Shown here: in pieces, positions 12,274-35,284 of the stretch
Position numbering within the stretch: position 1 is the stretch's first letter
How the letters are laid out: each line of letters starts with the position of its first letter
Origin: Minisyncoccota bacterium
GTDB taxonomy: Bacteria > Patescibacteriota > Minisyncoccia > Phycocordibacterales > GWA1-40-21
Assembly: GCA_041659365.1 (NCBI GenBank)
Contig: JBAZYH010000004.1
Span: 164 to 64,163, forward strand
Direction of reading: 5' to 3'
DNA: 64,000 nt
Program-made: the position numbers and the translations under genes
Notes under the pieces: model-generated
The model's input: the letters and a program-made list of their open reading frames with translations, nothing else
Told to the model about the DNA's origin: nothing
Database searches by the model: none

Positions 12274-12276
12274 TTA

Positions 12277-17671: not shown

Positions 17672-17681
17672 AAAATAATTT

Positions 17682-18065: not shown

Positions 18066-18075
18066 TATATATCTT

Positions 18076-18822
18076 ATGAAAGACAACTTCGTTAAAAAAT
18101 TACTTGAGCGATTAAGTCAAAAGCAAACCATTATAAAAAGAAATTATGGAGAAAATTTATATTTAGAAAATCGTAAAAAGTTAATATCTTTATTATTAAG
18201 TCACCCATATTATATTGAGGGAATTATTAAATTAAAAAATAGTATAAAAAATAGTAAAATTCCTGTTGGGGAAAGTAATGAAAAAGTATTTTTTTGGGAG
18301 CATTTCAATGATAATAATGTTCGTCTCATAAGAAAAAAGATTCAAAAATTAATATCAGAATTTAATTTTAATGTTTTATATATTAATGATATAGAACAAT
18401 TTACTTATGATTATATAATTTGTCCGTCTAGAATTGAAAAAATTTCAAAAGAGAATATACCCAGTTTGGTTATAGTTAATACAGACGAAGATAGAAAAAT
18501 TAATGCTCATTTATTTTCTTCAAATTCTCGATATATACAAATTTTTGACTGGACAACACTTAAAGATATACAAGAAAATTGGGATAAAATTAAAGAGGGT
18601 ATTTTAGAAAAATCTATAGAAATAGATGTGAGTGATGACCTTTCTAAACTTCTTTGGAAATTAAAATTAGAAGGAAAAAATATTAAAGAAATGACTTATG
18701 ACGTGAATACTAAATACAAATATTTGTTATCCAAAATAAAAGATAACCTCTTAGGCGAAGATAATACGAGGGTATATATACATCGCTATGAGACAAGGTT
18801 AAAAAAGTTAAAAGATTTTTAA
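18076..18822 (+). CDS. Hypothetical protein (248 aa)
   Basis: ORF only. Confidence 0.35.
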   Translation: MKDNFVKKLLERLSQKQTIIKRNYGENLYLENRKKLISLLLSHPYYIEGIIKLKNSIKNSKIPVGESNEKVFFWEHFNDNNVRLIRKKIQKLISEFNFNVLYINDIEQFTYDYIICPSRIEKISKENIPSLVIVNTDEDRKINAHLFSSNSRYIQIFDWTTLKDIQENWDKIKEGILEKSIEIDVSDDLSKLLWKLKLEGKNIKEMTYDVNTKYKYLLSKIKDNLLGEDNTRVYIHRYETRLKKLKDF

Positions 18823-19034
18823 AATATTACAGGTGACAATATCAACACCTGTAATATCGTAAAAAAGAATATTTTCCTAAGATATAAGAATGATATCTAA
18901 GGAAGATTTTAAAAAAGCTCTCGGAGAAAAGATTCATTCTATTTCAGAAGAAGATATAGAAAAACTGAGAATTGGAATGGATGAAATGGCGGAAATCCTT
19001 TTTGATATTTGGAATGATAAAATAATTAAATTAG

Positions 19035-20756: not shown

Positions 20757-20790
20757 AAAGGCCGTGTCCTAACCGTTAGACGATAAGGCC
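20716..20790 (-). tRNA. tRNA-Glu(UUC), CCA encoded
   Basis: Minus-strand read: ggcctta-tc-gtct-aacggtta-ggac. Anticodon stem cggcc/ggctg, loop ttTTCaa. T-arm cgggg-ttcgatt-ccccg. Acceptor 3' strand taaggtc, then acca. Confidence 0.85.
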
Positions 20791-20796
20791 AAACTA

Positions 20797-20970
20797 TTTA
20801 AATACCAAACAAATCAAACCCCGAATTTACCTTCTTACAGAAGCAGTATACCTGTTCTGTTTTTTATTTCACTATCGTTCATATAAAACTATCACAGGTT
20901 TTGAATTGCTCCATGTATTCGCAATTCAACCTCTCAAAGGCCCGTCTTCTAACCGTTAGACGATAAGGCC
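20797..20970 (-). pseudogene. Degenerate tandem pseudo-tRNA-Glu. The 5' 30 nt are about 90% identical, then an insertion of about 95 nt (hairpin), then a degenerate T-arm.
   Basis: + strand 20941-20970 cccgtcttctaaccgttagacgataaggcc against the tRNA cognate gccgtgtcctaaccgttagacgataaggcc. Downstream aattcggggtttgattt against aatcggggttcgattcc. Confidence 0.6.
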
Positions 20971-21086
20971 AATAATCTTTATTTTAGTATACGGTGTATT
21001 GTATAAAGTATAAAAAAATAAATTTCAAATACCGAAAAAATATAACATTTTTTTGTAAAAAAAGCAAAATAATGATAACCTTTATT

Positions 21087-21183
21087 AGTCAAATTTGGAG
21101 AGGTGGCTGAGTGGTTGAAGGCACCGCATTCGAAACGCGGCAAGCTCGAAAGGGTTTCGGGAGTTCGAATCTCCCTCTCTCCG
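21087..21183 (+). tRNA. tRNA-Ser(CGA), class II with a long variable arm
   Basis: ggagagg-tg-gct-gagtggttgaa-ggc. Anticodon loop ttCGAaa. Variable arm caagctcgaaagggtttcgg. T-arm gggag-ttcgaat-ctccc. Acceptor 3' strand tctctcc. Confidence 0.8.
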
Positions 21184-21197
21184 CAGAGTCGTGATAG

Positions 21198-21258
21198 CAC
21201 GAGATACATACTAAGAAACATCCTGGCTAGGATGTTTCTTAGTATGTATCTCGCGTAC
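21198..21258. terminator. Perfect inverted repeat of about 26 bp, a bidirectional terminator
   Basis: gcacgagatacatactaagaaacatcctggctaggatgtttcttagtatgtatctcgcg. Confidence 0.75.
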
Positions 21259-21271
21259 AATAAATATTTAT

Positions 21272-21934
21272 CTATTCCTCATCCTTAATCAATCCATCCT
21301 TAAGCCAGATAACCCGATCTACATATTTTTTATCTTCTGGTTCGTGTGTCACAACAAGAATCGTTTGTTTTAATTCTTTATTAAGTTTTTGAAAAAGTTT
21401 GAAAACAACTTCCGAAGAAACAGTATCAAGATTGGCAGTAGGTTCATCAGCAAAAAGAACTTTAGGATTATTAATTAAAGATCGTGCAATAGCTACTCTT
21501 TGTTGTTCTCCTCCAGACATCTCATTTGGGTAATGATTCATTCTATCTTTCAATCCAACTAAATCCAAAAGATGTTCTGCTCTTTCTTTTGCACTATCAT
21601 CACCAAAAGCCATAGCTGGGAAAGAAACATTCTCAAGTGCTGTAAATTCAGCAATTAAAGCATATTCTTGAAAGACATAACCTAAATACTGAAGTCTAAA
21701 TCTTGTTCTTTCTGAATCTGATAAAGTTAAAACATTAAATTTATTAATTACAACACTACCACTTGTTGGCATATCAAGTAACCCTAATTGATGTAACAAT
21801 GTTGATTTTCCAGATCCACTTCTGCCCATGAGTGCCACAAATTCTCCTTCAGCGATTTCAAGGGACACACCCTTTAATGCTAATGTTGGAACTTCTCCTG
21901 GATATGTTTTTATAAGATTTTCTACTTTAATCAT
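21272..21934 (-). CDS. ABC transporter ATP-binding protein (MacB/LolD/FtsE type)
   Basis: Walker A GRSGSGKST, ABC signature LSGGEQQRVAIAR, Walker B ILFADEPT. Confidence 0.85.
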   Translation of the reverse strand: MIKVENLIKTYPGEVPTLALKGVSLEIAEGEFVALMGRSGSGKSTLLHQLGLLDMPTSGSVVINKFNVLTLSDSERTRFRLQYLGYVFQEYALIAEFTALENVSFPAMAFGDDSAKERAEHLLDLVGLKDRMNHYPNEMSGGEQQRVAIARSLINNPKVLFADEPTANLDTVSSEVVFKLFQKLNKELKQTILVVTHEPEDKKYVDRVIWLKDGLIKDEE

Positions 21935-21944
21935 AATATTTTAA

Positions 21945-23177
21945 TTAGCCCCAGATTGATTTAAGAATATCTTCTCTTGCTACTATTTTAGCAGGAATAT
22001 ATCCAGCTAAAATTCCAGCAATGATAAGACTACTAATGTTTATAATAATTCCAAAAGATGTATAAACTAAAACTGCATCTCCAAATGGCATAGTAATAGG
22101 TTTAACTGCCATTATAGGAATGACTACAAAATATATAATTATTAACCCTCCAATGATTCCTAGTGCAGAATAAAATATTGATTGAATAATATATGATACT
22201 TCAATAATACTTTCTTTTATTCCAATAGCTTTTAAAATACCAATCTGTCTACGCTTGCTAACCGCATTAACGTAGATCATAACAAAGATAGTTATAGCTG
22301 AAACAATAATACTAATAACACTTACTATAACAGCGATAAGATTAAAAGCTGTAACAAGTATGCCAACAGTTGATAATCTAGATGTGTATTTTTCAAGCTT
22401 AAGATTAGGAATCATCTGGCTAATTTTATTGGTATATTCATCAAGTGTATTTTTCTCTAGATCAACTTTCACCATAATTTCTGAAGCACTATTGTAAGTA
22501 GATAGTAAACTTTCTGCTTCAGAGGTTGAAATAAAAGCAGCACTAGCAACAGATCCAACCATAGAAAGTTTGAATATGCCTACTATTGTATAAGTTCTAG
22601 TAATTCCATTTGAATAATTTATTTGTATTTTACTTCCAACAGTTGCACCTCCTAGGTCTTTGGTTTGTTTTGTGCCAAAACCACCCGATAGATTTGCCCC
22701 TAAAACTATTTCATCATCTTTTAAATTATCTGGAAATTTTCCAGATACCATATATTTATTTATAGTTAAAATATTTTTTTCCTCAGATTGAGTTACTCCA
22801 ATTATTTGGGCAGAAGTATATTTAAAATTACCATCTCTTTCTTTATCGTAGGATAAAGTACCCCCAAGTTGATAGTGTCTTGCAGTTCCAACAACCCCAG
22901 GAATTGTTTCAATTTCCGCACGTACTCTATCTTGATCGAAAACAAAAGGTTTAATGGTTGGTTCTTCTTGTGGCATAACAATAATATGTGCTGTTGAATT
23001 ATCTATCATTGATTTCATTACTCCATCAGAAAAACCATAAAGAAAACCCGAAACAAACATAAGGTTAAAAAAGGAAAGCGATAAAATAAAGATAATAAGA
23101 GCAATTGTAGATTTATGACCCTTTGTTATAGTTTTATATGCAATAAAGAATGCTGTTTTTAAATCAGTACTATTCAT
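21945..23177 (-). CDS. ABC transporter permease, FtsX/MacB-like (four TM, large periplasmic domain)
   Basis: N-terminal TM, periplasmic domain of about 220 aa, C-terminal three-TM FtsX-like region. Confidence 0.7.
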   Translation of the reverse strand: MNSTDLKTAFFIAYKTITKGHKSTIALIIFILSLSFFNLMFVSGFLYGFSDGVMKSMIDNSTAHIIVMPQEEPTIKPFVFDQDRVRAEIETIPGVVGTARHYQLGGTLSYDKERDGNFKYTSAQIIGVTQSEEKNILTINKYMVSGKFPDNLKDDEIVLGANLSGGFGTKQTKDLGGATVGSKIQINYSNGITRTYTIVGIFKLSMVGSVASAAFISTSEAESLLSTYNSASEIMVKVDLEKNTLDEYTNKISQMIPNLKLEKYTSRLSTVGILVTAFNLIAVIVSVISIIVSAITIFVMIYVNAVSKRRQIGILKAIGIKESIIEVSYIIQSIFYSALGIIGGLIIIYFVVIPIMAVKPITMPFGDAVLVYTSFGIIINISSLIIAGILAGYIPAKIVAREDILKSIWG

Positions 23178-23179
23178 AT

Positions 23180-24640
23180 CTATTTTTTACTTTGTGTAGA
23201 AACCATTACCTGTTCTCCCTCTTCGAGACCTGATATTATTTCTATCATACCTGCTGAATTTTTAATTCCAGTAGTCACATCTCTGTTGATTGTTTTTTTA
23301 TTTTCTAAAATCTGCACATATTTTTTATTATCTTTAATTCGTATTGCACTTACGGGAATAAATAGTGCATTCTCTTTAACATCTGTTCTAATTAAAACAT
23401 TAGCTGTCATTCCAGATTTAATATGTTCATCAACCTTATCAAATATAATTGTTGTCTCGTAATAGACCGCACCCTGAATTTCAGTCTCAGCTGGATCAAT
23501 AGAAACTATTTTCCCACTAAATTTCTGATTCTCAATTGCATCAAATGTAATCTCTGCTTCTTGTCCAACCTTAACATTGATAATTTTATCCTCTATAATA
23601 TTTAATTTAATTTGAAGAACATTTTCAGCAACAAATGATACAACTGGCTTATCTGGATTTATAATTTCTCCAATCTCGCCATTAATTTTAGTTATTAACC
23701 CAGATGATGGAGCTAAAATAATTAGTTCATTTCTTTGTGATTGAATTTTTTGAAGTAAGGCCTTAGCTTGATTAACTTGTGCTTGATATACAGCAATATC
23801 TAAAGATCTTGCAGGGGCTTTTTTTAATGCTAGTTCGGCAGTACGTTGATCTATTAAAGATTTTGCTTGTGAAAGAGCAGATTGATACGCATTATAATTA
23901 GCTAGATAATTAGAGGCTTTTTTATTTGGAATTTCAATAACCCAGTTGGTCGACAAAGTACTTGGATCTGATGGAAATTTAATATATAAGCCTGAATTAC
24001 CAAGTGGTTGCGGGGTAATAGTATTTGCTAACCCTGTTCCAGTGGTTAATCCTGACAAAGTATAGCTTGTTCCACCTGAGCTGTTGTATGTTTCTATTGT
24101 TATCTTACCCTCTTTACCAATATTGTATGTTCCGCTAATTGTCGGGGCAATATAATTATCTTCTTCTTCCTCAGGAACTGCTTCGGGGGTAGAATTTAAT
24201 AGATTTTGATAAGCATTATTAATCAGAGTTTCTTGTGTGTTTTTAGTCTGTTCAAGTGTAATTTGAGAAAGTGAGACTTCTTCATCAGAGGCTCCACCCA
24301 AAAGTTGATCTAGTTTTGCTTGTTGCAATTCAATACCTGCTTTCATCTCTGAAACTTGAGCGTCAAGCTCCGCAGTATCTTGTTTAGCAAGAATTTGACC
24401 AGCTAAAACCTTTTTTCCTGTTCCCGTATTAATTGATACCAATTTACCACTATTTTTAAAATGTAGATCTATTTTAGTGGGAAATTCAACTTTACCAGTC
24501 GCAGAAACATCTTGTACTAAAGTACCTCTTTTAACTGAAATTAATTCAGATGGAATATTATTATTCTTCCAAATAATAAAACCTATAATACTAATAATAA
24601 CTATAGCTCCTATGGTAATAAATAAAGTTTTTTTTCTCAT
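23180..24640 (-). CDS. Periplasmic adaptor (HlyD/MacA family membrane-fusion protein)
   Basis: N-terminal TM, long coiled coil (LDAQVSEMKAGIELQQAKLDQL...), beta-barrel and lipoyl-like regions typical of MFPs. Same operon as the ABC permease and ATPase. Confidence 0.7.
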   Translation of the reverse strand: MRKKTLFITIGAIVIISIIGFIIWKNNNIPSELISVKRGTLVQDVSATGKVEFPTKIDLHFKNSGKLVSINTGTGKKVLAGQILAKQDTAELDAQVSEMKAGIELQQAKLDQLLGGASDEEVSLSQITLEQTKNTQETLINNAYQNLLNSTPEAVPEEEEDNYIAPTISGTYNIGKEGKITIETYNSSGGTSYTLSGLTTGTGLANTITPQPLGNSGLYIKFPSDPSTLSTNWVIEIPNKKASNYLANYNAYQSALSQAKSLIDQRTAELALKKAPARSLDIAVYQAQVNQAKALLQKIQSQRNELIILAPSSGLITKINGEIGEIINPDKPVVSFVAENVLQIKLNIIEDKIINVKVGQEAEITFDAIENQKFSGKIVSIDPAETEIQGAVYYETTIIFDKVDEHIKSGMTANVLIRTDVKENALFIPVSAIRIKDNKKYVQILENKKTINRDVTTGIKNSAGMIEIISGLEEGEQVMVSTQSKK

Positions 24641-24766
24641 AAAATAAAATAATTGGACTTTTTTTAATAATACTGATACATTAAGTTAATGATTACATCA
24701 TGTTTCTTTATTGTAAACTATCTTAATCATAAAGTAATTCTATTAATAATGCAACCATACTAAATT

Positions 24767-25279
24767 ATGTCTCCTCTAAAATTAGAAACACGTGAGCAAA
24801 TAGTCAATAATTTGATGGTCTCAATTCGTAAAGAGATTCGTGCAGCTACCCTTTTTGTACACACAATGTCTGAAATTACAGGAATGCACCCTACAGATAT
24901 AAAATGTCTAGATTTTTTGAGTGATGTTAAATTCGCAACAGCTGGAGAATTAGCCAAAATTACAGGACTTACAACTGGTGCAATTACAGCAGTCATAGAT
25001 AGATTGGAAAAAATAGGTTTTGTAAAACGCGAGGCAGATAGTAAAGATAGAAGAAAAATTATAGTTAGAATAGTAGCAGAACATCCAAATAACCTAGAAC
25101 TAGTAAGAAATATTTTTGCAGATAAATTACCTAATAATTTATCTGAATACAAAGATGAAGAACTTAATCTAATTACAAATTGGAACAAAAAACTATCTGA
25201 TATTTTCCACAGTGAAATAGAAAAAATAAAAACTTCAAAGAAGGAATTAAACCCTAAATTAAAATCTAACAGTTTTTAA
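24767..25279 (+). CDS. MarR-family transcriptional regulator
   Basis: GELAKITGLTTGAITAVIDRLEKIGFVKREADSKDRRKIIVRI is a MarR winged helix. Confidence 0.75.
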   Translation: MSPLKLETREQIVNNLMVSIRKEIRAATLFVHTMSEITGMHPTDIKCLDFLSDVKFATAGELAKITGLTTGAITAVIDRLEKIGFVKREADSKDRRKIIVRIVAEHPNNLELVRNIFADKLPNNLSEYKDEELNLITNWNKKLSDIFHSEIEKIKTSKKELNPKLKSNSF

Positions 25280-26588
25280 AACTAATCTTCTTTTTACTCA
25301 AACAAATCCTGCTTTTCAAACACCCCAATAATTCTCTCTTTTCCAAATCACTCCCTTCCCTCAATACATATCTAGCATATCCTCGTATATCAACACTTGG
25401 TATACTAACTTTTTCTTTAGTTCCCAAAAAGAATTTTTGTAAGTTGGTAAATTTCTCAACATCCGTTTTAATTTTTTCTTTAATCTGAATCTCATTTATA
25501 TTAATCTTTTCAATTAATTCTTCGAACTGTTTGAGAATATCTTTTTCTTCTGTATAACCACATTTGCAGTCGGTGCCTCGTGCCTTGGTGCAACCATAAT
25601 AGACGTATCTTGTAATTGTTCCGTTCTTATATTTCTTAAATTTTTCATCAGCACATATACCCGATCCACAAAGTCCGCAGGTCATCATTTTGGTGAAAGC
25701 AAATTCTTTGTTTTCGATCCTTAAAACATTACTTTTTATTTGCTCTTGGACTAAATTAAATAACTCTTTCGTAATTAGCGGTTCATGCTTTCCTGTATAC
25801 CAATTACCAGATTTTTTGGGATATTCAAATACCCCATAATAGAATGGATTATCTAAAATTTTATAAAGATTACCTAAACTTAGATGTTTCTTACCAACTG
25901 CCGTTCTGAAGTTTAACTCAAACCTCAACCAGTTGTATATCTTCCTCCCACTCCAATGTTCATATGCTACTTTCTCAAACATTTTTTTGATAGTTGATGC
26001 TCTTTCTGGGTCAACCAACACTTCACATTTTTTATTTGTCATTTTTTGGTTTAAATAACCAGTAGGTGCTACCCCTGGCCTTAGTCCCATTTCACATCTA
26101 GTTCTCAATCCTCGTTTAACATTTACACTTTTATTATCATTTTCAAGTTTTGCTTGAGAACATAGAATCATTAATAGAAACTTTTCATTTGGTGAGTTCT
26201 TAAAGTGTTGTCCGTAAGTTCGTATCTCTAAAAGTAATTGTTGATCCATTAAATCAACCACACTCCCTAGGTCGCCTGCATTACGAGATAGACGATCTGG
26301 TGCCCAAGTTAATATCCCATTAAATCGTCCTCGTCGTATGTCTTCCAGTATTTCTTTGTATACTGGTCGTTGTCCTGATTCTTTAGCTGAATGAGATTCT
26401 TTTCTGATTTCAACTACTTCCAAGTCCTCACGTTCAGCAAGTTGTAACATTTCCTTAACCTGTGAATCAATTGAAAGAACCTGACGTTCTTCTGACTCAG
26501 TTGATTTTCTTGCATACAATACATATTTAATTTTCTCTACTTGGCTAATAATGGGATGGTTAAACTGTGCTGTTGTATATGTTTCCAT
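25266..26588 (-). CDS. Large serine recombinase (second copy)
   Basis: YARKSTESEERQ...(resolvase catalytic Ser), recombinase domain, zinc ribbon CGLCGSGICADEK...YYGCTKARGTDCKCGY. Confidence 0.85.
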   Translation of the reverse strand: METYTTAQFNHPIISQVEKIKYVLYARKSTESEERQVLSIDSQVKEMLQLAEREDLEVVEIRKESHSAKESGQRPVYKEILEDIRRGRFNGILTWAPDRLSRNAGDLGSVVDLMDQQLLLEIRTYGQHFKNSPNEKFLLMILCSQAKLENDNKSVNVKRGLRTRCEMGLRPGVAPTGYLNQKMTNKKCEVLVDPERASTIKKMFEKVAYEHWSGRKIYNWLRFELNFRTAVGKKHLSLGNLYKILDNPFYYGVFEYPKKSGNWYTGKHEPLITKELFNLVQEQIKSNVLRIENKEFAFTKMMTCGLCGSGICADEKFKKYKNGTITRYVYYGCTKARGTDCKCGYTEEKDILKQFEELIEKININEIQIKEKIKTDVEKFTNLQKFFLGTKEKVSIPSVDIRGYARYVLREGSDLEKRELLGCLKSRICLSKKKISFKNC

Positions 26589-26680
26589 ATACCAATGGTG
26601 TCAGAGAAAGAGTCTTTTGCTAAGTCTATGCAGAACTATGAATACGTAGTATGGTCGCGAGTATCTTTTTAATGATTTTA

Positions 26681-28243
26681 TTAACCCACATCTACATAAT
26701 CGCCGTAAAAAACGATATCATCGTCAGATACTCCACGTCTGTTCATATCAAACCAAGCCATAAGAATTGTTCCTTCGTTTGAATGTTTATCAAGAGTAGA
26801 ATTAATAAGTAGTGAAAATGCGTCAGCTATGTCGTCATGTTTCTCCACTCCAAATTCAACTAGTTGTTCGATAAGTTCCTCACATCCTTGTCTTGGAAAT
26901 TTAATAACTCCAGACTTTATTGACGTTGATGTTAAAGATAATCTAGTTCTTTTATCTCCCTTTGGTTTAACTGATTCAGCTTTGATCCCATGCAACTCAA
27001 GCATTTGAGGTAGTGCTTCTTGGTAAGCAACACTTTCAACAAACAATGTATCTTGAGACCTAGGCATTTGAGTATTCTTAAAGTTTTTCATTAGCTCAAC
27101 TTGATCGGGGAAATTTATTTTCTTAACAATTGGATTAGGAAGAATATAAATTTTCATTTTCTCCCTACGACCATACACATGAGCCGAGACAATTGCAGTG
27201 AAGTCGGCAGAATCTTTAGAAGATATAGCGAGGTCAACTCCTGCATAAGTGCCACGATATGCTTTATGTTTTGTCCCAGGTAATTCATCGTAGTATTGAA
27301 TCCACTCAGGATAAATAACTTGATCATCGCTTGGAATAATACGAAGTAGATATTCTCGTTGCCATGATATTTCACTAGCAACTTTCATTTTTTCATCTTC
27401 TATATCTTTTACATCTGGATACTTCCCAGGCCATAAACAAATATTGTCTTCATCGAGTAATGGGTATTGTTTAAAAATACCTTTTGATCTTTTATTTTCT
27501 ATATCTTCCCTTATTCTCATTAGTAATGAATCTTCGTGCAAAAGGTTACCAACAGCGATAAGTCTGGTTTTACGATCTCCTGCGGGGATTACTTCGCCAT
27601 ATAGCCATTGGTACGTCTTATCTCGTCCCTCACGAGTTTTGGTTGATTGTACGTCTTCTACGTCGTCACAGATTATCAGATCAGGTCTATGCTCATTGTG
27701 TCTAATTCCTCGTATACTCTGCTCTGTTGAGGCAACAGTAATACGAGCATTACTTTTATTAAATACCAAGGAATATGAACCCCATTCATCACTCTGTTCT
27801 TGGAATGGTCCCAAATCCCTTTTTAATAAATCATTACCCTCAAGTTCACTTCTAATATTCATCATATGTTGCTTTGCTTGTGTCCTTGTCTGACAGAAAA
27901 TTAAACAAAATTTCTTTTGTTGTTTTCCAAGTATTGCCCATATTGGGTAGGCAGTTGTAACCATTGTGGATTTACCAGATCCACGAAAAGCAACTACATA
28001 CAAATTCTCTGTGTCGCTACTTTCTAAATGGTGAATTATTTCTTTCTGAAAATCTGCTGTTTCGTATTTTACATAATGGGCATAATAGAAATGGAAAAAA
28101 TATAAGAAACTATCTCTTGTGATAGATGTTCTTACGAGCCTATCTTTCATCATCTTATTTACTAAACTATTTTCAATGATTTTAGTCATGGTTTTTCTTT
28201 TCGTTAATATTTTTAATAGATTTCGACTTAGTAATTGAGGCAA
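26681..28243 (-). CDS. Phage terminase large subunit-like protein
   Basis: Walker A VVAFRGSGKST, Walker B-like LIICDDVEDV, and a C-terminal RNaseH-like nuclease with acidic residues (AGVDLAISSKDSADFTAIV). Confidence 0.7.
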   Translation of the reverse strand: MPQLLSRNLLKILTKRKTMTKIIENSLVNKMMKDRLVRTSITRDSFLYFFHFYYAHYVKYETADFQKEIIHHLESSDTENLYVVAFRGSGKSTMVTTAYPIWAILGKQQKKFCLIFCQTRTQAKQHMMNIRSELEGNDLLKRDLGPFQEQSDEWGSYSLVFNKSNARITVASTEQSIRGIRHNEHRPDLIICDDVEDVQSTKTREGRDKTYQWLYGEVIPAGDRKTRLIAVGNLLHEDSLLMRIREDIENKRSKGIFKQYPLLDEDNICLWPGKYPDVKDIEDEKMKVASEISWQREYLLRIIPSDDQVIYPEWIQYYDELPGTKHKAYRGTYAGVDLAISSKDSADFTAIVSAHVYGRREKMKIYILPNPIVKKINFPDQVELMKNFKNTQMPRSQDTLFVESVAYQEALPQMLELHGIKAESVKPKGDKRTRLSLTSTSIKSGVIKFPRQGCEELIEQLVEFGVEKHDDIADAFSLLINSTLDKHSNEGTILMAWFDMNRRGVSDDDIVFYGDYVDVG

Positions 28244-28598
28244 GCTTGAGTGCCTGTTTTACTATTTTTGCTTGTGATGGAGTAAGTTCTTCCTTATCTT
28301 CTTTTGTAGTAATTTCTATCTTATCTCTGTAATTATCATTTCGGTGTTTCAACCAGAAAGAAATAGCCGACCAGTTCTTTTCTTTGATCATAGTAAGCAA
28401 TTGACTTTCGCTCATATCATTTACAAAAGCAACACCTTCAGACATAGCTTTATCCATTTTTGCAGAGAAAGATTTATCATCTTTTTTCCAACGATATACA
28501 CTATTTCTAGATACTCCTGTTTTTTCACATGCTACTTGCACGATAGGAACTTTCTTCAACTCTTCAAAGAATTGATCTTGTGATTTATTTTTCTTCAT
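28182..28598 (-). CDS. Terminase small subunit-like HTH protein
   Basis: VACEKTGVSRNSVYRWKKDD is an HTH. Located immediately upstream of TerL and overlapping it. Confidence 0.55.
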   Translation of the reverse strand: MKKNKSQDQFFEELKKVPIVQVACEKTGVSRNSVYRWKKDDKSFSAKMDKAMSEGVAFVNDMSESQLLTMIKEKNWSAISFWLKHRNDNYRDKIEITTKEDKEELTPSQAKIVKQALKLASITKSKSIKNINEKKNHD

Positions 28599-29868
28599 AA
28601 GATTTTATCTGGGCTTTTTTACCAGTAAATAATTCATAACGTTTTATAATCAAATCACAAAACTTTGGCTCTAGCTCTAAGCCATATACTCTTCGACCTA
28701 ATTGTTCACCTGCAAGGAGAGTGCTACCTGAACCCAAGAAACTATCTAAGATAATGTCATTTGGTTTTGTACATCGTTTTATAGCCTTCTCATGAAGAGT
28801 TATCGGTTTAGAAGTCGCATGTTCATAGTCCTTAGCTGAAAGCCTTTTAGCTGTCCATATCTCAAGAAAATCATCAACTTGTGCTACAAGTTCATTTCCT
28901 GTTCCGAATTCTTTGTTTAATACCTCATTAAGAGTTGTGATTGATTCTGCAAGGTATGGTCGTCCACGAATACCATAGACCGCAGGTTCATATGCTTTAT
29001 TGCAGAATATTTTAGGCACGGGGTTTTGTGAATTTTTCAGCCATAAGCAAACTCGTTTATTAGACACACCAAGTGATCTGTATATGTCCTGAATTAATCC
29101 TATATACACCTGATCGCAATAATAGAAAACGTGCGTACTAGGGTTAGATACTGCAAGTGCTGACTCTAAACTTTCTCGAATAAATGTTTTATATTCTTCA
29201 AAAGTTCTAGAATCTTTTACACTTCCTCCGTACTCTTTATTTCCACCAATTCCACCATCATAGTCTATATCTAGGTTATACACTGGGTCCGAATAGATCA
29301 TCGAAACTTTCTCTTCGCCTAACAGTCTTTTTAGATTTTCAGGTTTAGTTGAATCACCACAAAGAATTTTGTGTTTACCGAGAATAATAATATCTCCTAA
29401 TTTTGTTTTAGGTTCTGTTATTTTTTTGATTTCTTTTTCGATATCGAAATTATCTTCTTTAACTTCCTGATCTTCATCCCAGAATTTTGCAATTTCCATA
29501 TCTTCAAACCCCGCGAGTTGAAGAAGCTCCATGTCAAAAGATCTAAGGAGATCATAATCCCAGTCACCACCTAATTTATTTGAAGCAATTAGATATTGTT
29601 TCGATTCTATTTCTGTAAGCTTTCTATTTGGAATCCTTACGTCAATTATTTCTTCTCCACGATCTAATAACTGCAAAGCCCTAATCCTTTGGTGTCCTGC
29701 CAAAATAACTCCTGTTTTATCAATAGCAGGAATCTCAACTAAATTATACTTCTGCAAACTTTTCTTAATATCTGACATTTGCTTATCTGATATTTTGCGA
29801 GGATTGATCTTTTGAGGAATAAGATCATTAACATTTCTTTGGACCGTAGTCCATATGAGTTTACTCAT
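28585..29868 (-). CDS. ParB-like nuclease domain fused to a DNA methyltransferase (beta class, N6A/N4C)
   Basis: N-terminal ParB/Srx-like region (VEIPAIDKTGVILAGHQRIRALQLL). Methyltransferase motif IV SDPVYN (DPPY-type) precedes motif I ILDSFLGSGSTLLAGEQLGRRVYGLELE. Confidence 0.75.
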   Translation of the reverse strand: MSKLIWTTVQRNVNDLIPQKINPRKISDKQMSDIKKSLQKYNLVEIPAIDKTGVILAGHQRIRALQLLDRGEEIIDVRIPNRKLTEIESKQYLIASNKLGGDWDYDLLRSFDMELLQLAGFEDMEIAKFWDEDQEVKEDNFDIEKEIKKITEPKTKLGDIIILGKHKILCGDSTKPENLKRLLGEEKVSMIYSDPVYNLDIDYDGGIGGNKEYGGSVKDSRTFEEYKTFIRESLESALAVSNPSTHVFYYCDQVYIGLIQDIYRSLGVSNKRVCLWLKNSQNPVPKIFCNKAYEPAVYGIRGRPYLAESITTLNEVLNKEFGTGNELVAQVDDFLEIWTAKRLSAKDYEHATSKPITLHEKAIKRCTKPNDIILDSFLGSGSTLLAGEQLGRRVYGLELEPKFCDLIIKRYELFTGKKAQIKSYEEK

Positions 29869-30038
29869 ATTATTTTATTAATAAATTTAATAAAATGTAT
29901 AGATATAGAAAAAGCCTATTCCGTACACGAAATAAAAGAAGTTTGACTAAACTCAATTTATTTCTTGCGCGGAATAGGCATGGCTTTGAAGCGATACACT
30001 ATTCTACTTTTTACTACGCATTAACTAACATTTGTATT

Positions 30039-30461
30039 TTAATCCGTAGGTTTATTTTTTGCAAGCCCACGAATAATTCTTTGTCCATTTTTACTTTTTA
30101 TAAATTCGACCATATCTTTTCCAGCAACAATGGGAAGTCCTGCTTTTGGTATCTGTATTACGACTTCAAATCCATTTTTACGCTCTTCTTCTACGTACTT
30201 TACAAATGCAGGATCATTCTGTAATTGAGTAAGAATTTCCATTTTGAAAGTATTTGTATTTTCTACAATGGGTTCAGGTTTATTTATATGTTGATATATT
30301 CTACCTGGTTGCCCAATTGCATTAAAAGCTTTTTTAAGTTTACTTCCAAATGTACTGGGTCGTTTTGGACTAGCATGCAACATAATATCCGTTAAAAGAA
30401 TATTCTTATATTTTACTCCTTCTTTTCTTGCTGTTGGCTTAAATTCTAATTTGTATTCCAT
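30039..30461 (-). CDS. Hypothetical protein (140 aa), divergent from the repressor gene
   Basis: ORF only. Sits in a lysogeny-switch-like position. Confidence 0.35.
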   Translation of the reverse strand: MEYKLEFKPTARKEGVKYKNILLTDIMLHASPKRPSTFGSKLKKAFNAIGQPGRIYQHINKPEPIVENTNTFKMEILTQLQNDPAFVKYVEEERKNGFEVVIQIPKAGLPIVAGKDMVEFIKSKNGQRIIRGLAKNKPTD

Positions 30462-30492
30462 AGCTTTTTACACTTGCTTAAATTTATACTTA

Positions 30493-30518
30493 GGTGTATA
30501 CTATTGTATACTATTATG
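30493..30518. promoter_or_regulatory. Candidate operator: tandem GTATAC palindromes in the divergent region
   Basis: ttaggtgtatactattgtatactatt between the divergent gene 30039-30461 and the repressor gene. Confidence 0.4.
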
Positions 30519-31133
30519 AATAAAAACACAAGAGACAAAGATATATCAGTGCTTAAATTTATAAGAAATACGTTCATTAACAGCGGTACGGGTCCTTCCC
30601 TAAGAGAGATAAATGAGGTTACAGGAGGTAAATCTCCTCGATCTGCCAGTATCATTTTAGACAGACTTGAAAAAGATGGTTTTATAAAAAGACAGAATGG
30701 AAAAATAATTTCTATTGCTTTTGAAAAACCAAATTCTGTTTCAACGATTAATATACCATTAGTGGGAGCTGTACCCTGTGGTGCACCAATGTTGGCAGAA
30801 CAAAATATTGAAACTTATATTCCTGTTTCAACTGCTTTAGCAAAGAAAGGGTCAAATTATTTTCTTTTAAGAGCAACTGGGGATTCTATGAATCTAGCAG
30901 GGATAAATGATAAAGATATTCTTTTAGTTAGGCAACAAGAAACTGCTGATAATGGAGAAAAAGTTGTAGCTTTAATTGATGAAGAAGCTACTGTAAAAAT
31001 TTTAGATAAAAAAGACGATGTTGTAATTTTAAGACCAAAATCTTCAAATTCTTCACACAAGCCAATTATATTATCAAATAATTGTCAGATTCAGGGAGTC
31101 GTCGTGGCTGTACTTCCATCTGACTTATATTAA
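30516..31133 (+). CDS. LexA/CI-like repressor (wHTH plus S24 self-cleaving peptidase domain)
   Basis: SLREINEVTGGKSPRSASIILDRLEKDGFIKRQ. PLVGAVPCGAP cleavage region. GDSM catalytic Ser and a downstream Lys (VKIL). Confidence 0.75.
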   Translation: MNKNTRDKDISVLKFIRNTFINSGTGPSLREINEVTGGKSPRSASIILDRLEKDGFIKRQNGKIISIAFEKPNSVSTINIPLVGAVPCGAPMLAEQNIETYIPVSTALAKKGSNYFLLRATGDSMNLAGINDKDILLVRQQETADNGEKVVALIDEEATVKILDKKDDVVILRPKSSNSSHKPIILSNNCQIQGVVVAVLPSDLY

Positions 31134-31136
31134 AAT

Positions 31137-31415
31137 ATGAATACAATACTTATTTCATATGACCTAAATGGTCACGAAGATAGTGAGTCTTATAAAAAAC
31201 TCATAGAAAAAATTAAAGAATATCCAAGTTGGGCAAAACCTTTGGAGTCTTTTTTCTTAGTAAAAACAGATAGCAGTTCCTCTGAAGTACGAGATAATTT
31301 AACCCCATATATAGATTCAAACGACGAGCTCTTAACTATAAACGTTACTAATCGTGGTTGGGCTAGTAGGGGTATATCAACAAAAGTAAATGATTGGTTA
31401 AAGACAAACATGTAA
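31137..31415 (+). CDS. Hypothetical small protein with a weak Cas2-like/ferredoxin-fold N-terminal pattern
   Basis: MNTILISYDLNG...PLESFFLVKT weakly resembles the Cas2 beta1/beta3 pattern (VLVSYDI...SVFEC). No CRISPR array is present. Confidence 0.3.
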   Translation: MNTILISYDLNGHEDSESYKKLIEKIKEYPSWAKPLESFFLVKTDSSSSEVRDNLTPYIDSNDELLTINVTNRGWASRGISTKVNDWLKTNM

Positions 31416-31440
31416 TATTAAAAATTAATTTATAAAAAAT

Positions 31441-31647
31441 ATGTTACCAAAATATATAAAAAATTCGGGGAAACAATGGACACCCTCAGAAGAAAAACAA
31501 TTAAAATCATTAGCAAAAGACAATACACCCACTCGTGTAATTGGTCTTAAATTAGGTCGACCAGTAGGAGGAGTGCAAAATAAAGCATCAGAGCTAGGTG
31601 TAAGTTTAAAACCTACAAATCAAGCACCATATAATCGTAAAAAATAG
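31441..31647 (+). CDS. Hypothetical small basic protein (68 aa)
   Basis: ORF in the operon. Possible DNA-binding. Confidence 0.3.
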   Translation: MLPKYIKNSGKQWTPSEEKQLKSLAKDNTPTRVIGLKLGRPVGGVQNKASELGVSLKPTNQAPYNRKK

Positions 31648-31648
31648 C

Positions 31649-32041
31649 ATGGAAGCGAAATTAAAACATTTGGAATTTATCCAAGCAACAATTAATCGTA
31701 TGTCCAGTAATTCTTTTCTCTTAAAAGGATGGGCTATAACAATTATTGGTGGACTTTTTGCACTAACATTCAAAGAAACAAATTGCACCTATATTTATTT
31801 TTCTTCCATGCTTTTAATATTTTTTGCATTATTAGATTCATATTACCTATCAAGAGAAAGACTTTTTATTAAACTTTATAATCAGGCAAGAAAAGAGGAG
31901 GAACCTGATATAAAATTTTCTATGGACATTAGTAAATTTAAATCTGGATGTGATTGGTGTGATGCTCTCTTTTCTACCACTACAGGTTTATTTTATGGTG
32001 GACTACTTATTACTCAGTTTCTAATAATCTATTTTATTTAA
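31649..32041 (+). CDS. Small three-TM membrane protein (130 aa) immediately upstream of ThsB. Candidate effector.
   Basis: TM helices WAITIIGGLFALTF, IYFSSMLLIFFALLDSYYL and GLFYGGLLITQFLIIYFI. The stop abuts the ThsB start. Confidence 0.45.
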   Translation: MEAKLKHLEFIQATINRMSSNSFLLKGWAITIIGGLFALTFKETNCTYIYFSSMLLIFFALLDSYYLSRERLFIKLYNQARKEEEPDIKFSMDISKFKSGCDWCDALFSTTTGLFYGGLLITQFLIIYFI

Positions 32042-32042
32042 T

Positions 32043-33002
32043 ATGGCAAGATATGTATTTTTCAGCTTTCATCATGGGGGCGATTCAAAAAGAATAGGTG
32101 TTGTTAGAAATCATAATGTTACCAAGGATGATTATCAAGAGGCTGGATATATTGATTCTGCTGATTGGGAAAAGATTAAACTTCAAGGTAAAGATTCCGT
32201 AAAAAAATGGATCAATACTCAACTAAATGGGACATCTGTTACAGTTGTACTGATTGGTGCTAAAACCTCAGAACGAGAATGGGTTAATTATGAAATTCAA
32301 GAAAGTTTTAACAGGGGGAATGCATTACTTGGTGTTTATATACACAATATAAAAGGACTCGACCAGGTTACTACACCTAAAGGAGAAAATCCTTTTGATA
32401 ATTTTTCAATAGATGAAAATGGGAAACCTCTTAGTAGTATTGTTTCTACATATGATTGGGTAAATAATGATGGATATAATAATTTTAGTGAATGGGTAGA
32501 ATCAGCATATAAAAATTGGCAAAAACCAGAAAATTCTGTTTTAAAAAGTATTACTAAAATATCTACCGTAAACACAAATCTTGAAACACCACAAACAAAA
32601 ATATTAAGTCGTGATCAAGGTGAACAGTTTATTGAGGATATTGGGATTAAAACAAATTTAATATACAGAGTAGGACTTGACTGCGAAGTTAAACAGGATG
32701 GGTTTAGACCTTTTTTTCTTAAGAGTTCGAGTAATCCTTTGAAGAAAAAACGCTCTTTAGAATTTTTTATTAATTCTTGTACAGTTCCAAAACCGTATTC
32801 AATAAAATGGAAAGTAAAAAATACAGGGAGTGAAGCTTCCTCATTAAGTGCACTTAGAGGAGAAATAACTGACGATGCTGGTTTTGAAAGAAAAAAGGAA
32901 AATACCTTATATACAGGGACTCATTATGTTGAATGTTATGTGATAAAAGATAATCAATGTGTTGCTAAGGATAAAATTAATGTTCCCATATCATCTTATT
33001 AA
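32043..33002 (+). CDS. thsB: Thoeris ThsB-like TIR-domain protein with a C-terminal beta-rich extension
   Basis: RYVFFSFHHGGDSKRIGVVRNHNVTK, GTSVTVVLIGAKTSEREWVNYEI, GVYIHNIKG...KGENPFD and TYDWVNNDGYNNFSEWV. These closely follow the Bacillus cereus ThsB pattern (RVFFSFHY...VVRNHWVTK, NTSVTCVLIGS...RWVRYEI, GIHIN...GPNPFD, VYDWVADDGYNKFSSWV), recalled from memory and not searched. Confidence 0.8.
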   Translation: MARYVFFSFHHGGDSKRIGVVRNHNVTKDDYQEAGYIDSADWEKIKLQGKDSVKKWINTQLNGTSVTVVLIGAKTSEREWVNYEIQESFNRGNALLGVYIHNIKGLDQVTTPKGENPFDNFSIDENGKPLSSIVSTYDWVNNDGYNNFSEWVESAYKNWQKPENSVLKSITKISTVNTNLETPQTKILSRDQGEQFIEDIGIKTNLIYRVGLDCEVKQDGFRPFFLKSSSNPLKKKRSLEFFINSCTVPKPYSIKWKVKNTGSEASSLSALRGEITDDAGFERKKENTLYTGTHYVECYVIKDNQCVAKDKINVPISSY

Positions 33003-33018
33003 CTAATAATAAATAATT

Positions 33019-33510
33019 ATGAAAAGACAAGTTTTTTATAGTTTCCATTATGACAATGACCACTGGAGGGCATCTCAAGTCCGAAACATCGGAGCAATTG
33101 AAGGTAATAGACCTGCTCCAGATAATGATTGGGAGACAGTTAAAAAAGGTGGAGATCAAGCTATTGAACGCTGGATTAATGAACAAATGAAATATCGTTC
33201 TTGTACGATTGTTTTAATCGGATCAAAAACCGCTGATAGAAAATGGATAAAACATGAAATAAAGAAATCTTGGGAAAATGGAATGGGGTTAGTTGGCATA
33301 TATATTCATAACTTAAAAAATAGTGTTGGGTCACAGGGATATCAAGGGAGTAATCCTTTTGATAGTTTTAATCATAATGGAACACCATTAAATCAAATAA
33401 TTAAAACTTATAATCCTCCATACAATGACAGTAAACAAGTTTATGCTTATATAAGCAATAATATAGGTGCATGGGCTGATGAAGCAGTTTTAATTCGTCA
33501 AAAATACTAA
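33019..33510 (+). CDS. thsB: Second, shorter ThsB-like TIR-domain protein
   Basis: KRQVFYSFHYDNDHWRASQVRNIG, SCTIVLIGSKTADRKWIKHEI, GIYIHNLKN...GSNPFD. Confidence 0.75.
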   Translation: MKRQVFYSFHYDNDHWRASQVRNIGAIEGNRPAPDNDWETVKKGGDQAIERWINEQMKYRSCTIVLIGSKTADRKWIKHEIKKSWENGMGLVGIYIHNLKNSVGSQGYQGSNPFDSFNHNGTPLNQIIKTYNPPYNDSKQVYAYISNNIGAWADEAVLIRQKY

Positions 33511-33522
33511 TCAAATATCTAT

Positions 33523-34191
33523 ATGGATTTTGATGTTGCTATTTTAAATCTAAATAAAATTTTAGAAGAAAAACAACCATCAAAAATTAGTCCATCTTGG
33601 ATTTTTCAAAACTCTCCCCGTGTATATCGTTATATTTGGAAAAATATCAGGACCGAAAATAATGAAATTGACTGGGATATTGTTACTGATTCTTTAGATA
33701 GATCATTTCAGAAATGTTGGACTAGATACAGGTATAAAAAAGCCAAACTTTACGAGAAGCAGTCTGAAGTTGATCTAATCATAAATAAGTATAAAGATAA
33801 ACTTTATACATTTTTAACAGTTACAAATGAAAAAGATAAACATATTCAAGACAGAATGGTTATAAGCTTAGTTAGACTTGGACAAAAAGGAAATGTTTGT
33901 GCTCAAGAAGAGTTGATTAAATGGGTAACTTTTATTACTGACGACTGGATTGATCGTTACCCACAGATGTGCAGATGGAAAGGATATACAGATGAAGTAC
34001 CAGATAAGATTAGAGGATGTATCCGTTGTTATAGATATACAGGGTCTTTTCTTGGGTATCTTTTTAGAACTCTTGAATATTCAGTAAGGGGTAAACCTCC
34101 TTTGGTGTCTTTGAATGACAAGATTTTTGATGGTAGTAAAACCCTAGAAGAATATGCGAGGGTGGAGGAAGATTGGCAGATATATAAATAA
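33523..34191 (+). CDS. Hypothetical soluble protein (222 aa; W/R/Y/C-rich). Weak sigma-70 region 2-like pattern.
   Basis: No SIR2, SLOG or Macro signature. Co-oriented, with a 12-nt gap after the second TIR gene. Confidence 0.35.
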   Translation: MDFDVAILNLNKILEEKQPSKISPSWIFQNSPRVYRYIWKNIRTENNEIDWDIVTDSLDRSFQKCWTRYRYKKAKLYEKQSEVDLIINKYKDKLYTFLTVTNEKDKHIQDRMVISLVRLGQKGNVCAQEELIKWVTFITDDWIDRYPQMCRWKGYTDEVPDKIRGCIRCYRYTGSFLGYLFRTLEYSVRGKPPLVSLNDKIFDGSKTLEEYARVEEDWQIYK

Positions 34192-34196
34192 AGGAC

Positions 34197-34463
34197 TTGC
34201 TATATATTCAAATAATTGTAATATCTAGCGATATGAGAAGAAGATGGCAAAAAGATTATATATCTAAGAATGGTTATTCACCAGAAACCAACAGATTAGT
34301 GGGAAGCTTATCTTATGTTATTTTTTATTCAATTATATTTTATATAGCCTTTAAGGTATGGGGAATGGATGTTTTAGATGATGTTTGGTTCTGGGTTTTT
34401 AACGTTATATCTTATCCGTTTGTTGGTTGGTTTCTAAGAAAAATTAAGTTCTGGGTTTATTAA
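34197..34463 (+). CDS. Small two-TM membrane protein (88 aa) at the operon end
   Basis: LSYVIFYSIIFYIAFKVWG and FWVFNVISYPFVGWFL helices. Confidence 0.4.
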   Translation: MLYIQIIVISSDMRRRWQKDYISKNGYSPETNRLVGSLSYVIFYSIIFYIAFKVWGMDVLDDVWFWVFNVISYPFVGWFLRKIKFWVY

Positions 34464-34689
34464 AAGTTACAGTTGAATGTAACCTTTAACCTCAATCCCG
34501 TGTCACTTTTGTCACTTTTTTAATTCGCACGAGATACGTCGTTATGGTAATATAAAATTATTAGAAATAACGTTACAGGGCTTGTCATCGAAAGGTCCTA
34601 ACACGAGTGTCCCCGCATTTAAAAATCCACTGGAAACAGTGTGTTTTTTATACGGGGAGAAACGAGCAAACTTCTTTGCTCGTGTGTGA

Positions 34690-34772
34690 GATTCGAAAGA
34701 TTTTTCCATACGAGCTTTTGCGAGGAGGAAAAATACCTGGCTATGTGATAGCCGAATCTCCCCCTCTCCGCA
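34690..34772 (+). repeat. attR-like site: 20-nt near-identical direct copy of the tRNA-Ser 3' end, preceded by a module also found downstream of tRNA-Phe
   Basis: 34753-34772 cgaatctccccctctccgca against tRNA-Ser 21166-21185 cgaatctccctctctccgca (19/20). Upstream tacctggctatgtgatagccga matches 2868-2890 tacctggctacgtggtagccga. Confidence 0.65.
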
Positions 34773-34869
34773 AAATATATTATTGTTAAAATATAATATC
34801 CATGTTATAATTAACAAGGTTTAGTTTGGATTAACCATGAAGGTTATTCCTTAACAAAAGGAGTTTGAG

Positions 34870-35160
34870 ATGAAGAATGAGATGAATTTTCGTACTGCAT
34901 TTTGGGGACATGGAGCACCTTTCGGGTTTGTCTTTTTTGTTCTCATTGTGTGTATTTTATTGGTAACCGCTTCTAACTCTCAGCAGTTTTGTGAACCTGA
35001 GGGAGATTTCACGAAGTATCTTTATATAGCGAATGAGATTAACTACCAATTCATTTTGGTTTGTTCATCTCTAGTTTCGTTTATTATTTGTTTAATGATC
35101 ACTTTCTGGAAGATGAAAATCCGTCCGATTTTGGGTGTGGAGGATTATTTAATTCCGTGA
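34870..35160 (+). CDS. Hypothetical small membrane protein (96 aa)
   Basis: Two or three TM helices. Terminator hairpin at 35164-35190 (gaggccagcgacaagtcgctggcctc). Confidence 0.4.
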   Translation: MKNEMNFRTAFWGHGAPFGFVFFVLIVCILLVTASNSQQFCEPEGDFTKYLYIANEINYQFILVCSSLVSFIICLMITFWKMKIRPILGVEDYLIP

Positions 35161-35215
35161 GTTTGAGGCCAGCGACAAGTCGCTGGCCTCTTAATTTGTT
35201 TTTCGGTATTTTTGT

Positions 35216-35284
35216 GATAATATCTTGATTATAAATAAGGGCTAAACAATTTTTAAATTGTCGCCCGAATATTTTTATATTTTA
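35216..35284 (+). promoter_or_regulatory. tRNA promoter element (GGGCTAAAC - hairpin - TGTCGCCCGAA - TATATTTTAG)
   Basis: gggctaaacaatttttaaattgtcgcccgaatatttttatattttag ends immediately before tRNA-Val +1. Homologous to 60556-60619 and 184-225. Confidence 0.6.

Follow-up and report, generated by a model that had tools for sequence, protein, structure and literature searches.

Phage satellites such as the phage-inducible chromosomal islands (PICIs) are in general elements of about 10-15 kb that carry their own site-specific integrase, a repressor facing a divergent operon, one or more packaging genes and hotspots for anti-phage cargo. The capsid-forming PICIs (cfPICIs) encode their own small (TerS) and large (TerL) terminase subunits, and also the capsid, the portal, the protease and the head-tail connectors. 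SPbeta, which encodes the large serine recombinase (LSR) SprA, is a complete phage of 134 kb whose integration site is a protein-coding gene. Few mobile elements are known to us from bacteria of the Candidate Phyla Radiation (CPR). In published work, CRISPR systems are described as rare in these bacteria and their phage biology as little known. The tycheposons of Prochlorococcus are integrative elements targeted to tRNA genes, some of them carrying adaptive cargo and some being satellite-like; they form tandem arrays, partial tRNAs and degenerate remnants are left behind by them, and a minority use an LSR (bioRxiv 10.1101/2020.12.28.424599). This work concerns a window of 64,000 nt of a CPR genome of Candidatus Paceibacterota (contig JBAZYH010000004.1, assembly GCA_041659365.1; all positions are given on this window), in which the segment 21186-34617, beside a tRNA-Ser(CGA) gene, is in our estimate, with a probability of about 0.7, one integrated and satellite-like mobile element of about 13.4 kb.

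This locus resembles PICIs and other phage satellites in all of the general features named above. However, it differs from PICIs in having an LSR where they have a tyrosine recombinase, in having both TerS and TerL together with a ParB-methylase, in the absence of a recognised primase or replication module, and in its CPR host; unlike the cfPICIs, no capsid, portal, protease or head-tail connector gene was found in the element. The tycheposons have a deep-branching tyrosine recombinase and replication genes, and the PICI-like ones among them are free of cargo and have either TerS or a capsid protein, whereas here an LSR, TerS, TerL and cargo are found in one element. With SPbeta the locus shares the three-domain architecture of the LSR, for which SprA is the best solved relative, and a reconstructed attP with a putative short core in an imperfect inverted repeat; in contrast to SPbeta, the family to which the locus belongs has a size of 6-15 kb, no virion genes were found in it, and it targets the 3' ends of tRNAs. 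Unlike a classical tRNA island, there is no tyrosine integrase beside the tRNA. Part of the cargo, a PDC-M50A membrane protein with ThsB-type TIR proteins, is similar to PDC-M50 (a candidate system of PADLOC) and to Thoeris, but differs from Thoeris in that ThsA is absent and one TIR protein has an AGS_C domain, and the best PADLOC assignment is PDC-M50 A+B.

Loci of relatives at the tRNA-Ser gene, which are cited here by L numbers, were found by scanning species-representative genomes with the neighbouring thioredoxin reductase, and the two closest ones with enough flanking sequence were L005 and L006. In both, tRNA-Glu, tRNA-Ser(CGA), a gene for a 96-aa protein and tRNA-Val are contiguous, with a spacing of approximately 430-495 nt between tRNA-Ser and tRNA-Val, and thus represent the empty site. 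The window positions 34773-35284 align to the DNA immediately 3' of tRNA-Ser in L005 and L006. Because tRNA-Ser, the 96-aa gene and tRNA-Val are contiguous in these loci, the approximately 13.5 kb that part tRNA-Ser from the other two in the window are an insertion, missing from the locus of two related species. An earlier note on this DNA had proposed an island bounded by a direct repeat of the tRNA-Ser end, to be checked by alignment to relatives, and this alignment agrees with it in that the segment is absent and the flanks are contiguous. In contrast, GC content (0.30-0.37 in the island versus 0.23-0.44 across the rest of the window) and GC skew, the latter also named in that note, did not discriminate and were rejected as island markers. 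The repeat itself is real: the 20-mer CGAATCTCCCTCTCTCCGCA, which runs from the T-loop through the 3' end of the tRNA, has one other match in the window when up to 3 mismatches are allowed, on the same strand with 1 mismatch, while the expected number of matches was 0.00 (100 shuffles). The mismatch was rejected as a guide to which copy is native, since L005 has the C variant and L006 has the T variant, as in the tRNA of the window. The features of the island and its borders are listed below, with the strand as + or - where assigned and the source of the assignment in parentheses.

21097-21184, +, tRNA-Ser(CGA), the proposed integration target (ARAGORN; Rfam gives 21097-21183)
21166-21185, +, copy 1 of the 20-mer
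21189-21202, palindrome TCGTGATAGCACGA at the end of the element beside the tRNA
21200-21253, terminator-like perfect hairpin with a 25-bp stem, separating the ABC gene from the tRNA; found in L005 too
21272-24640, -, MacAB-like efflux operon, cargo 1 (Pfam), consisting of the next three genes
21272-21934, -, ABC ATPase (Pfam)
21945-23177, -, FtsX permease (Pfam)
23180-24640, -, HlyD-type adaptor (Pfam)
24767-25279, +, MarR, regulator of cargo 1, divergent from the efflux operon (Pfam)
25266-26588, -, LSR, 440 aa (Pfam, PHROGs)
26681-28243, -, TerL (phrog_38, E=3e-79; terminases in the PDB)
28182-28598, -, TerS (PHROGs)
28585-29868, -, ParB-like domain fused to an N6/N4 DNA methyltransferase
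30039-30461, -, 140-aa core protein, encoded at the head of the operon that diverges from the repressor; homologues in many loci of the family
30474-31133, +, repressor with LexA DNA-binding and Peptidase_S24 domains (Pfam)
31137-31415, +, phrog_1090 protein with a weak Cas2-like match
31441-31647, +, 68-aa helix-turn-helix (HTH) protein
31649-32041, +, PDC-M50A membrane protein, 130 aa, cargo 2 (PADLOC, E=5e-43)
32043-33002, +, TIR protein with an AGS_C sensor domain, cargo 2 (Pfam, PADLOC)
33019-33510, +, ThsB-type TIR protein, cargo 2 (Pfam, PADLOC)
33523-34463, +, 222-aa protein and an 88-aa membrane-like open reading frame (ORF)
34500-34617, -, conserved cis region (~120 nt) of the LSR-distal end
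34618-34752, +, tRNA-trailer module of 135 nt, followed by the 20-mer; probably outside the element
34753-34772, +, copy 2 of the 20-mer (19/20), directly after which the L005-homologous right flank begins

Every gene that the earlier note had named in the island was confirmed by Pfam, PHROGs and PADLOC. The LSR, located approximately 4 kb from tRNA-Ser, contains the Resolvase (PF00239), Recombinase (PF07508) and zinc ribbon (PF13408) domains and the catalytic motif YARKS at residues 25-29, and its closest solved relative is SPbeta SprA/YokA (E=3e-14). It is the sole recombinase, as neither a tyrosine recombinase nor another integrase was found among the ORFs by Pfam, PHROGs, PADLOC and a sequence search of the PDB. 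TerL matches phage terminases over almost its entire length. The repressor opposes the minus-strand operon (30461-25266), a layout which is kept in relatives, and its true start is probably about 14 codons downstream, judging from its homologues of 205 aa. The 222-aa protein is conserved at the distal end of family members, with a homologue in L177 that is 76% identical. No capsid, portal, tail or lysis genes were found in the window by Pfam and PHROGs, and the 13.4 kb leave no space for them, since the few ORFs still unassigned encode at most 222 aa; capsid, portal and tail genes were also absent from the relatives sampled. Furthermore, a megablast search of 25200-34800 against 50,697 phage records found no match.

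This gene arrangement is shared by a family of elements. Among the more than 500 relatives of the LSR that one scan yielded, 15 IMG/VR contigs and 80 metagenome loci from the TerL and LSR scans were examined, and the order ParB-methylase, TerS, TerL and LSR was found to be common to these loci, with LSRs that are 50-93% identical to that of the window. All three of the ParB-methylase, TerS and TerL genes were present in the same orientation in 30 of the 45 loci that had at least 5 kb upstream of the LSR, TerL ended no more than 400 nt from the LSR start in 14 of these 30, and the LexA-like repressor and the gene for the 140-aa protein were located upstream in many loci. The conserved core consists of the repressor, the 140-aa protein, the ParB-methylase, TerS, TerL and the LSR. 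In four loci (L093, L094, L095 and L096), TerL is doubled, and two paralogues with 46-51% identity to the TerL of the window follow each other in tandem in the segment from TerS to the LSR. In all 32 loci with a tRNA downstream of the LSR, the nearest one was convergent with the LSR, and these tRNAs are Ser (with several anticodons), Gln, Trp, Asn, Asp and Glu. The LSR and the tRNA are separated by 99-149 nt in L084, L086, L110 and L112, and by 0.7-9 kb elsewhere, with cargo in between. Elements of which both ends were mapped have sizes of 6.5-15.4 kb. No description of serine-recombinase or terminase elements of CPR bacteria (Patescibacteria) was found in literature searches; the family is widespread, with a fixed backbone, and undescribed in the literature searched.

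The ends of the element are marked by motifs that recur in the family. The palindrome TCGTGATAGCACGA begins 3 nt from the tRNA end, and palindromes of 14-16 bp, located 2-4 nt from the tRNA, are the signature of the LSR-proximal end across the family; that of L097 is nearly identical to the one in the window, and other variants are TCGTGCTAGCACGA in L160 and TTGAGCTAGCTCAA in L150. The half-site of the palindrome has two direct copies in a conserved block at the opposite end of the element, and these covary with it. The LSR-distal region contains this block of approximately 96 nt (34522-34617) and the exact repeat GTGACAAAAGTGAC (34502-34515, minus strand), a tandem half-site which occurs in more than 20 loci with constant orientation, in members with LSRs of only 50-93% identity to that of the window, and is likely to be a protein-binding site, the candidates being an operator, a pac site or an origin. 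At its outer edge the distal block is similar to the 3' end of whichever tRNA type is targeted, and in the window it ends with CCGCA (34613-34617), the proposed core, which also forms the last bases of tRNA-Ser (21181-21185); the distal copy of the tRNA end amounts to a core of 5-8 nt at 34610-34617. A structured RNA in the distal block was not supported by RNAalifold with 17-18 members on either strand, and no Rfam family matched the block.

In two independent contigs, L102 and L103, the palindrome is directly joined to the distal block with nothing in between (CTCGTGCTATCACGACT, TGGCGGAGAGCG and TCGTGTTAGAACC in succession), which represents either an attP or a tandem junction. When the ends of the window element are joined likewise, they form an imperfect inverted repeat with a 14-nt centre, ...TCCTAACACGA-GTGTCCCCGCAGAG-TCGTGATAGCA..., and the reconstructed attP, CACGA-GTGTCCCCGCAGAG-TCGTG, has the same geometry as that of L102 and L103, CACGA-CTTGGCGGAGAGCG-TCGTG. 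The attP candidate of approximately 50 bp contains TCCTAACACGAGTGTCCCCGCAGAGTCGTGATAGCACGAG, and the core shared with the tRNA, CCGCA, has its CC at the dyad. A short-core attP with an imperfect dyad is the geometry used by serine integrases. The inner attP is accordingly predicted to read ...GGTCCTAACACGAGTGTCCCCGCA followed by GAGTCGTGATAGCACGAG..., and the inner attB to read tRNA-Ser...CTCTCCGCA followed by TTTAAAAATCCACTGG.... Furthermore, the distal block adjoins host DNA directly in L177 and L084. Because the attP of L102 and L103 lacks the tRNA-trailer module and the block adjoins host DNA in these two other loci, the junctions are most likely 21185/21186 and 34617/34618 with the 5-bp core CCGCA, and the element would span 13,432 bp (21186-34617). 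For the same reasons, and since the sole recombinase is an LSR, we do not follow the earlier note in taking the 20-nt repeat for the attL and attR of the element.

The trailer module lies between the distal block and copy 2 of the 20-mer. It begins with a terminator hairpin, continues with a pseudo-copy, in antisense, of the 3' end of tRNA-Ser, into which a hairpin is set, and closes with the hairpin GGCTATgtgATAGCC. As an RNA it folds much better than shuffled controls (z=-6.4), and it matches no Rfam family. The same type of module stands alone behind tRNA-Phe in the window (2735-2900), with no element attached. The similarity between the two regions extends over about 200 columns with 75% identity, and TACCTGGCTAYGTGRTAGCCGA matches at 2870-2891, downstream of tRNA-Phe, and at 34734-34755; the similarity reported earlier is thus real, with coordinates that were slightly off. 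Modules were also found behind tRNA-Phe in L008 (approximately 18950-19213) and L026, tRNA-Val in L005, and tRNA-Glu in L018 and L052, and they accompany 6 of the 180 tRNAs tested, confirming the suspicion in the earlier note that the att-proximal sequence is a recurrent one. The order of the parts is the tRNA, the terminator hairpin, the antisense of the last 11 nt, a hairpin of 23-25 nt with the loop GCAAACTNCTTTGC, and the antisense T-arm. The antisense parts match the tRNA of each species itself, and the copy in L008 matches its own tRNA-Phe exactly. It is most likely that the 20-nt repeat is a duplication made by, or part of, a module located 3' of the tRNA and later split by the element.

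Our reading of 21186-34617 as one satellite-like element builds on the insertion, the synteny of the family, the orientation rule, the end motifs, the attP junction in relatives and the cargo. Packaging genes without capsid, portal or tail genes, and a repressor divergent from an operon, are features of phage satellites. The LSR would insert the element into the extreme 3' end of tRNA-Ser(CGA) at the core CCGCA, with the crossover predicted at the CC in the centre of CACGA-N14-TCGTG. In the integrated state, the LexA/S24 repressor may silence the divergent operon until it is cleaved or inactivated, and upon induction the operon would be expressed and the LSR, together with a recombination directionality factor, would excise the element. 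TerS and TerL could then package the excised DNA into the capsids of a helper phage, which we invoke because the element has no virion genes, and the ParB-methylase may protect or mark the DNA.

Several observations weigh against this reading, some of them with regard to the ends of the element and others with regard to its way of life. The attP evidence comes from a relative with an LSR that is 83% identical, and not from the window element itself, and an empty site in the same species was not found, as exact-protein look-ups gave only a 1.8-kb contig (NUDIX) and nothing for the LSR. The module is enriched beside elements of the family, as in L097 and L137: L097, whose LSR is 93% identical to that of the window, and L137 both have a 19-nt exact copy of the tRNA end beyond the distal block, separated from it by a spacer of 130-155 nt, and in L137 this spacer has the same architecture as the module of the window. 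Since this pattern is too frequent to be unrelated, it keeps alive the alternative in which the whole of 21186-34752 is the element, the 20-nt repeat is the attL/attR core, and the 135-nt module is an att arm of the element. The attP would then be the 20-mer between ...GTGATAGC and GAGTCGTG..., and the attB would be tRNA-Ser followed by AAATATATTATTG. In favour of this alternative, the 20-mer pair is highly non-random, and it is exactly after 34772 that the alignment with the empty site sets in again. However, besides the junctions of L102, L103, L177 and L084 described above, the spacer in L097 is unrelated in spite of a nearly identical distal block, the module stands alone behind tRNA-Phe in the window and in other species, and long identity cores are unusual for serine integrases. 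We therefore regard these outer junctions as unlikely. In L137, the sequence upstream of the 19-nt tRNA-Gln fragment (approximately 7130-7180) resembles the tRNA-side end of another element (GACGCGACTCGAGCGTCGC), which suggests a tandem array of two family elements in this region.

With regard to the way of life, the locus might be an integrative island for defence and other cargo which is not a satellite, and its terminase-like genes may serve another role, for example in packaging interference or as an abortive nuclease. TerL or TerS is missing in some members of the family (L097, L108, L170 and L171), and packaging genes are therefore not essential for persistence, while the duplication of TerL in four loci is odd for a plain packaging role. 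The cargo of the family is dominated by defence systems. No replication module (primase, helicase or Rep) was found among the ORFs of the element by Pfam and PHROGs, and the analysis identified neither a recombination directionality factor nor a replication initiator nor a helper phage. Recombination directionality factors share no common sequence family, and the candidates for this role, the 140-aa and 68-aa proteins, had no informative matches in sequence and structure searches. For the 140-aa protein, the AlphaFold2 model (pLDDT 75) had no Foldseek match in the PDB with E<1, and neither for this protein nor for the 222-aa core protein could a function be inferred by sequence or structure matching. 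In contrast, the strict phage-like order of TerS, TerL and ParB-methylase in 30 of the 45 informative loci, the match of TerL to phage terminases over nearly its full length, and a layout of repressor and divergent operon that is the one of inducible elements argue for a satellite, and a role apart from packaging appears rather improbable to us.

It is very unlikely that the locus is a decayed prophage, in which a complete temperate phage lost its structural and lysis genes and thereby left TerS and TerL beside the integrase. TerS, TerL, a ParB-methylase, a CI/LexA-like repressor and an integrase are typical of prophages. However, dozens of loci with diverse LSRs show the same gene order, again devoid of structural genes, and because of this recurrence the location of TerL beside the integrase is a conserved design and not a deletion scar. 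Furthermore, the DNA that does occur between TerL and the LSR in some loci is defence cargo and not head genes, and the mapped elements have the size of 6.5-15.4 kb given above.

Cargo is found in three slots, of which one follows the LSR, one separates TerL from the LSR and one lies beyond the repressor. The window has its MacAB-like operon with MarR in the first of these and its TIR/PDC-M50 cassette in the last. In relatives, the slot after the LSR carries restriction-modification systems of type I, IIG and ISP, Shedu, an Hsp70 system or a helicase-nuclease, an HlyD+MFS pump in L097, and FUR+ZnuABC in L179 and L180; the slot between TerL and the LSR carries reverse transcriptases or a type III-like restriction-modification system; and the slot beyond the repressor carries CBASS, a caspase-like protease or TIR proteins. 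The two TIR proteins of the window match PDC-M50B/ThsB with E values down to 2e-72 in PADLOC, which detected no ThsA effector (SIR2/Macro) in the element. The protein encoded at 32043-33002 (+) is an unusual fusion of a ThsB-type TIR domain to a C-terminal AGS_C sensor domain, and AGS_C otherwise matched the C-termini of the PADLOC models for oligonucleotide (CBASS-type) and Pycsar cyclases.

The efflux and MarR block is internal cargo: because the end palindrome separates tRNA-Ser from the efflux operon, the element includes the efflux genes, and the efflux, phage-like and TIR genes travel together, as the earlier note had supposed. A decayed relative of the window element was observed at tRNA-Glu in L005 (12092-16575), with efflux genes, MarR, the palindrome and approximately 85 nt of the LSR 3' end. 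Because the palindrome and this remnant of the LSR are retained, the L005 island is what a deletion has left of a related element that had integrated at another tRNA. Its efflux and MarR block lies 3' of tRNA-Glu and is oriented relative to this tRNA just as the block of the window is to tRNA-Ser. The decayed copy has an inner direct repeat of approximately 53 nt (12098-12150 and 16306-16358) and an outer repeat of the tRNA-Glu 3' end, ttccccgtaaggtcac (12076-12091 and 16560-16575), and the approximately 170 nt at 16406-16575 resemble the distal part of trailer modules (GGTGCCCAGAC...GGGAGATAAGTG). A single inversion that placed the efflux block across the tRNA pair in L005 was rejected, because it would flip the tRNAs too, and for this reason independent integrations at tRNA-Ser and tRNA-Glu fit better. 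The ABC and FtsX proteins of L005 are 94% identical to those of the window, as compared with 74-82% for core proteins, which suggests a recent exchange between the two lineages.

The possibility that two independent elements lie in tandem, the one an island of efflux genes and MarR beside the tRNA and the other, with the LSR, inserted where MarR has its 3' end, can be nearly dismissed, because the overlap of the LSR and MarR 3' ends (14 nt in the ORF list) and the occurrence of the efflux block without the rest of the element in L005, which speak for it, are countered by the family end palindrome on the tRNA side of the efflux operon, by the remnants in L005 just described, and by different cargo with the same tail-to-tail overlap in exactly that slot in L179 and L180 (FUR+ZnuABC) and in L097 (HlyD+MFS).

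A second island was observed at 10302-20756, across tRNA-Glu and 3' of it. This island encodes an LSR of its own (573 aa, 19035-20756), whose ORF has its stop 40 nt inside the tRNA-Glu gene. Its cargo includes an AAA ATPase (12858-13997), an S8 subtilase (13997-16354), a Glucodextranase_B-domain protein and a DUF488 protein, and it is located where L005 has its efflux island, with homology to L005 stopping at approximately 10301. A LOOT RNA (RF03000) was found at 16441-16562 (+) between the subtilase gene and the next ORF, with a score of 83.8 bits (gathering threshold 46.4). A 37-nt copy (89%) of the tRNA-Glu 5' half is present at 20936-20972 (versus 20756-20792), 180 nt from the intact gene; this half-copy is also present in L006 but not in L005, the single tRNA-Glu of which aligns with the partial copy. 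In L007 and L008, the divergent pair of tRNA-Glu and tRNA-Ser is inverted relative to tRNA-Val when compared with L005, L006 and the window, which suggests recombinase-mediated inversions at this hotspot.

A broader reading, which we hold as tentative, is that the family represents undescribed and widespread satellites of CPR bacteria, in which a serine integrase has been retargeted to many tRNA 3' ends, which have their own TerS and TerL, and which are the main vehicles for defence and transporter genes, with the trailer module functionally linked to them. As parts of this joint reading, the outer edge of the attP block would track the type of the target tRNA (Ser, Gln, Trp, Asn and Glu), and the module might serve, for instance, as a landing pad or as a decoy att site, or be a footprint of the recombination cycle. 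The locus also illustrates that a clean direct repeat of a tRNA end can belong to a small neighbouring module and not to the large island between its copies. If this broader reading is true, it would add serine integrases with a natural attB in a tRNA gene and a modular, retargetable attP, which may be of interest for integrase tools. Members of the family shuttle defence genes (TIR, CBASS, Shedu, restriction-modification systems and reverse transcriptases), efflux systems and metal transporters from one tRNA site to another and, as it appears, from one species to another. The genomes of CPR bacteria are tiny, and the family, conserved and abundant as it is, would, if this is true, point to an important path for the flow of genes and for defence against phages in these organisms.

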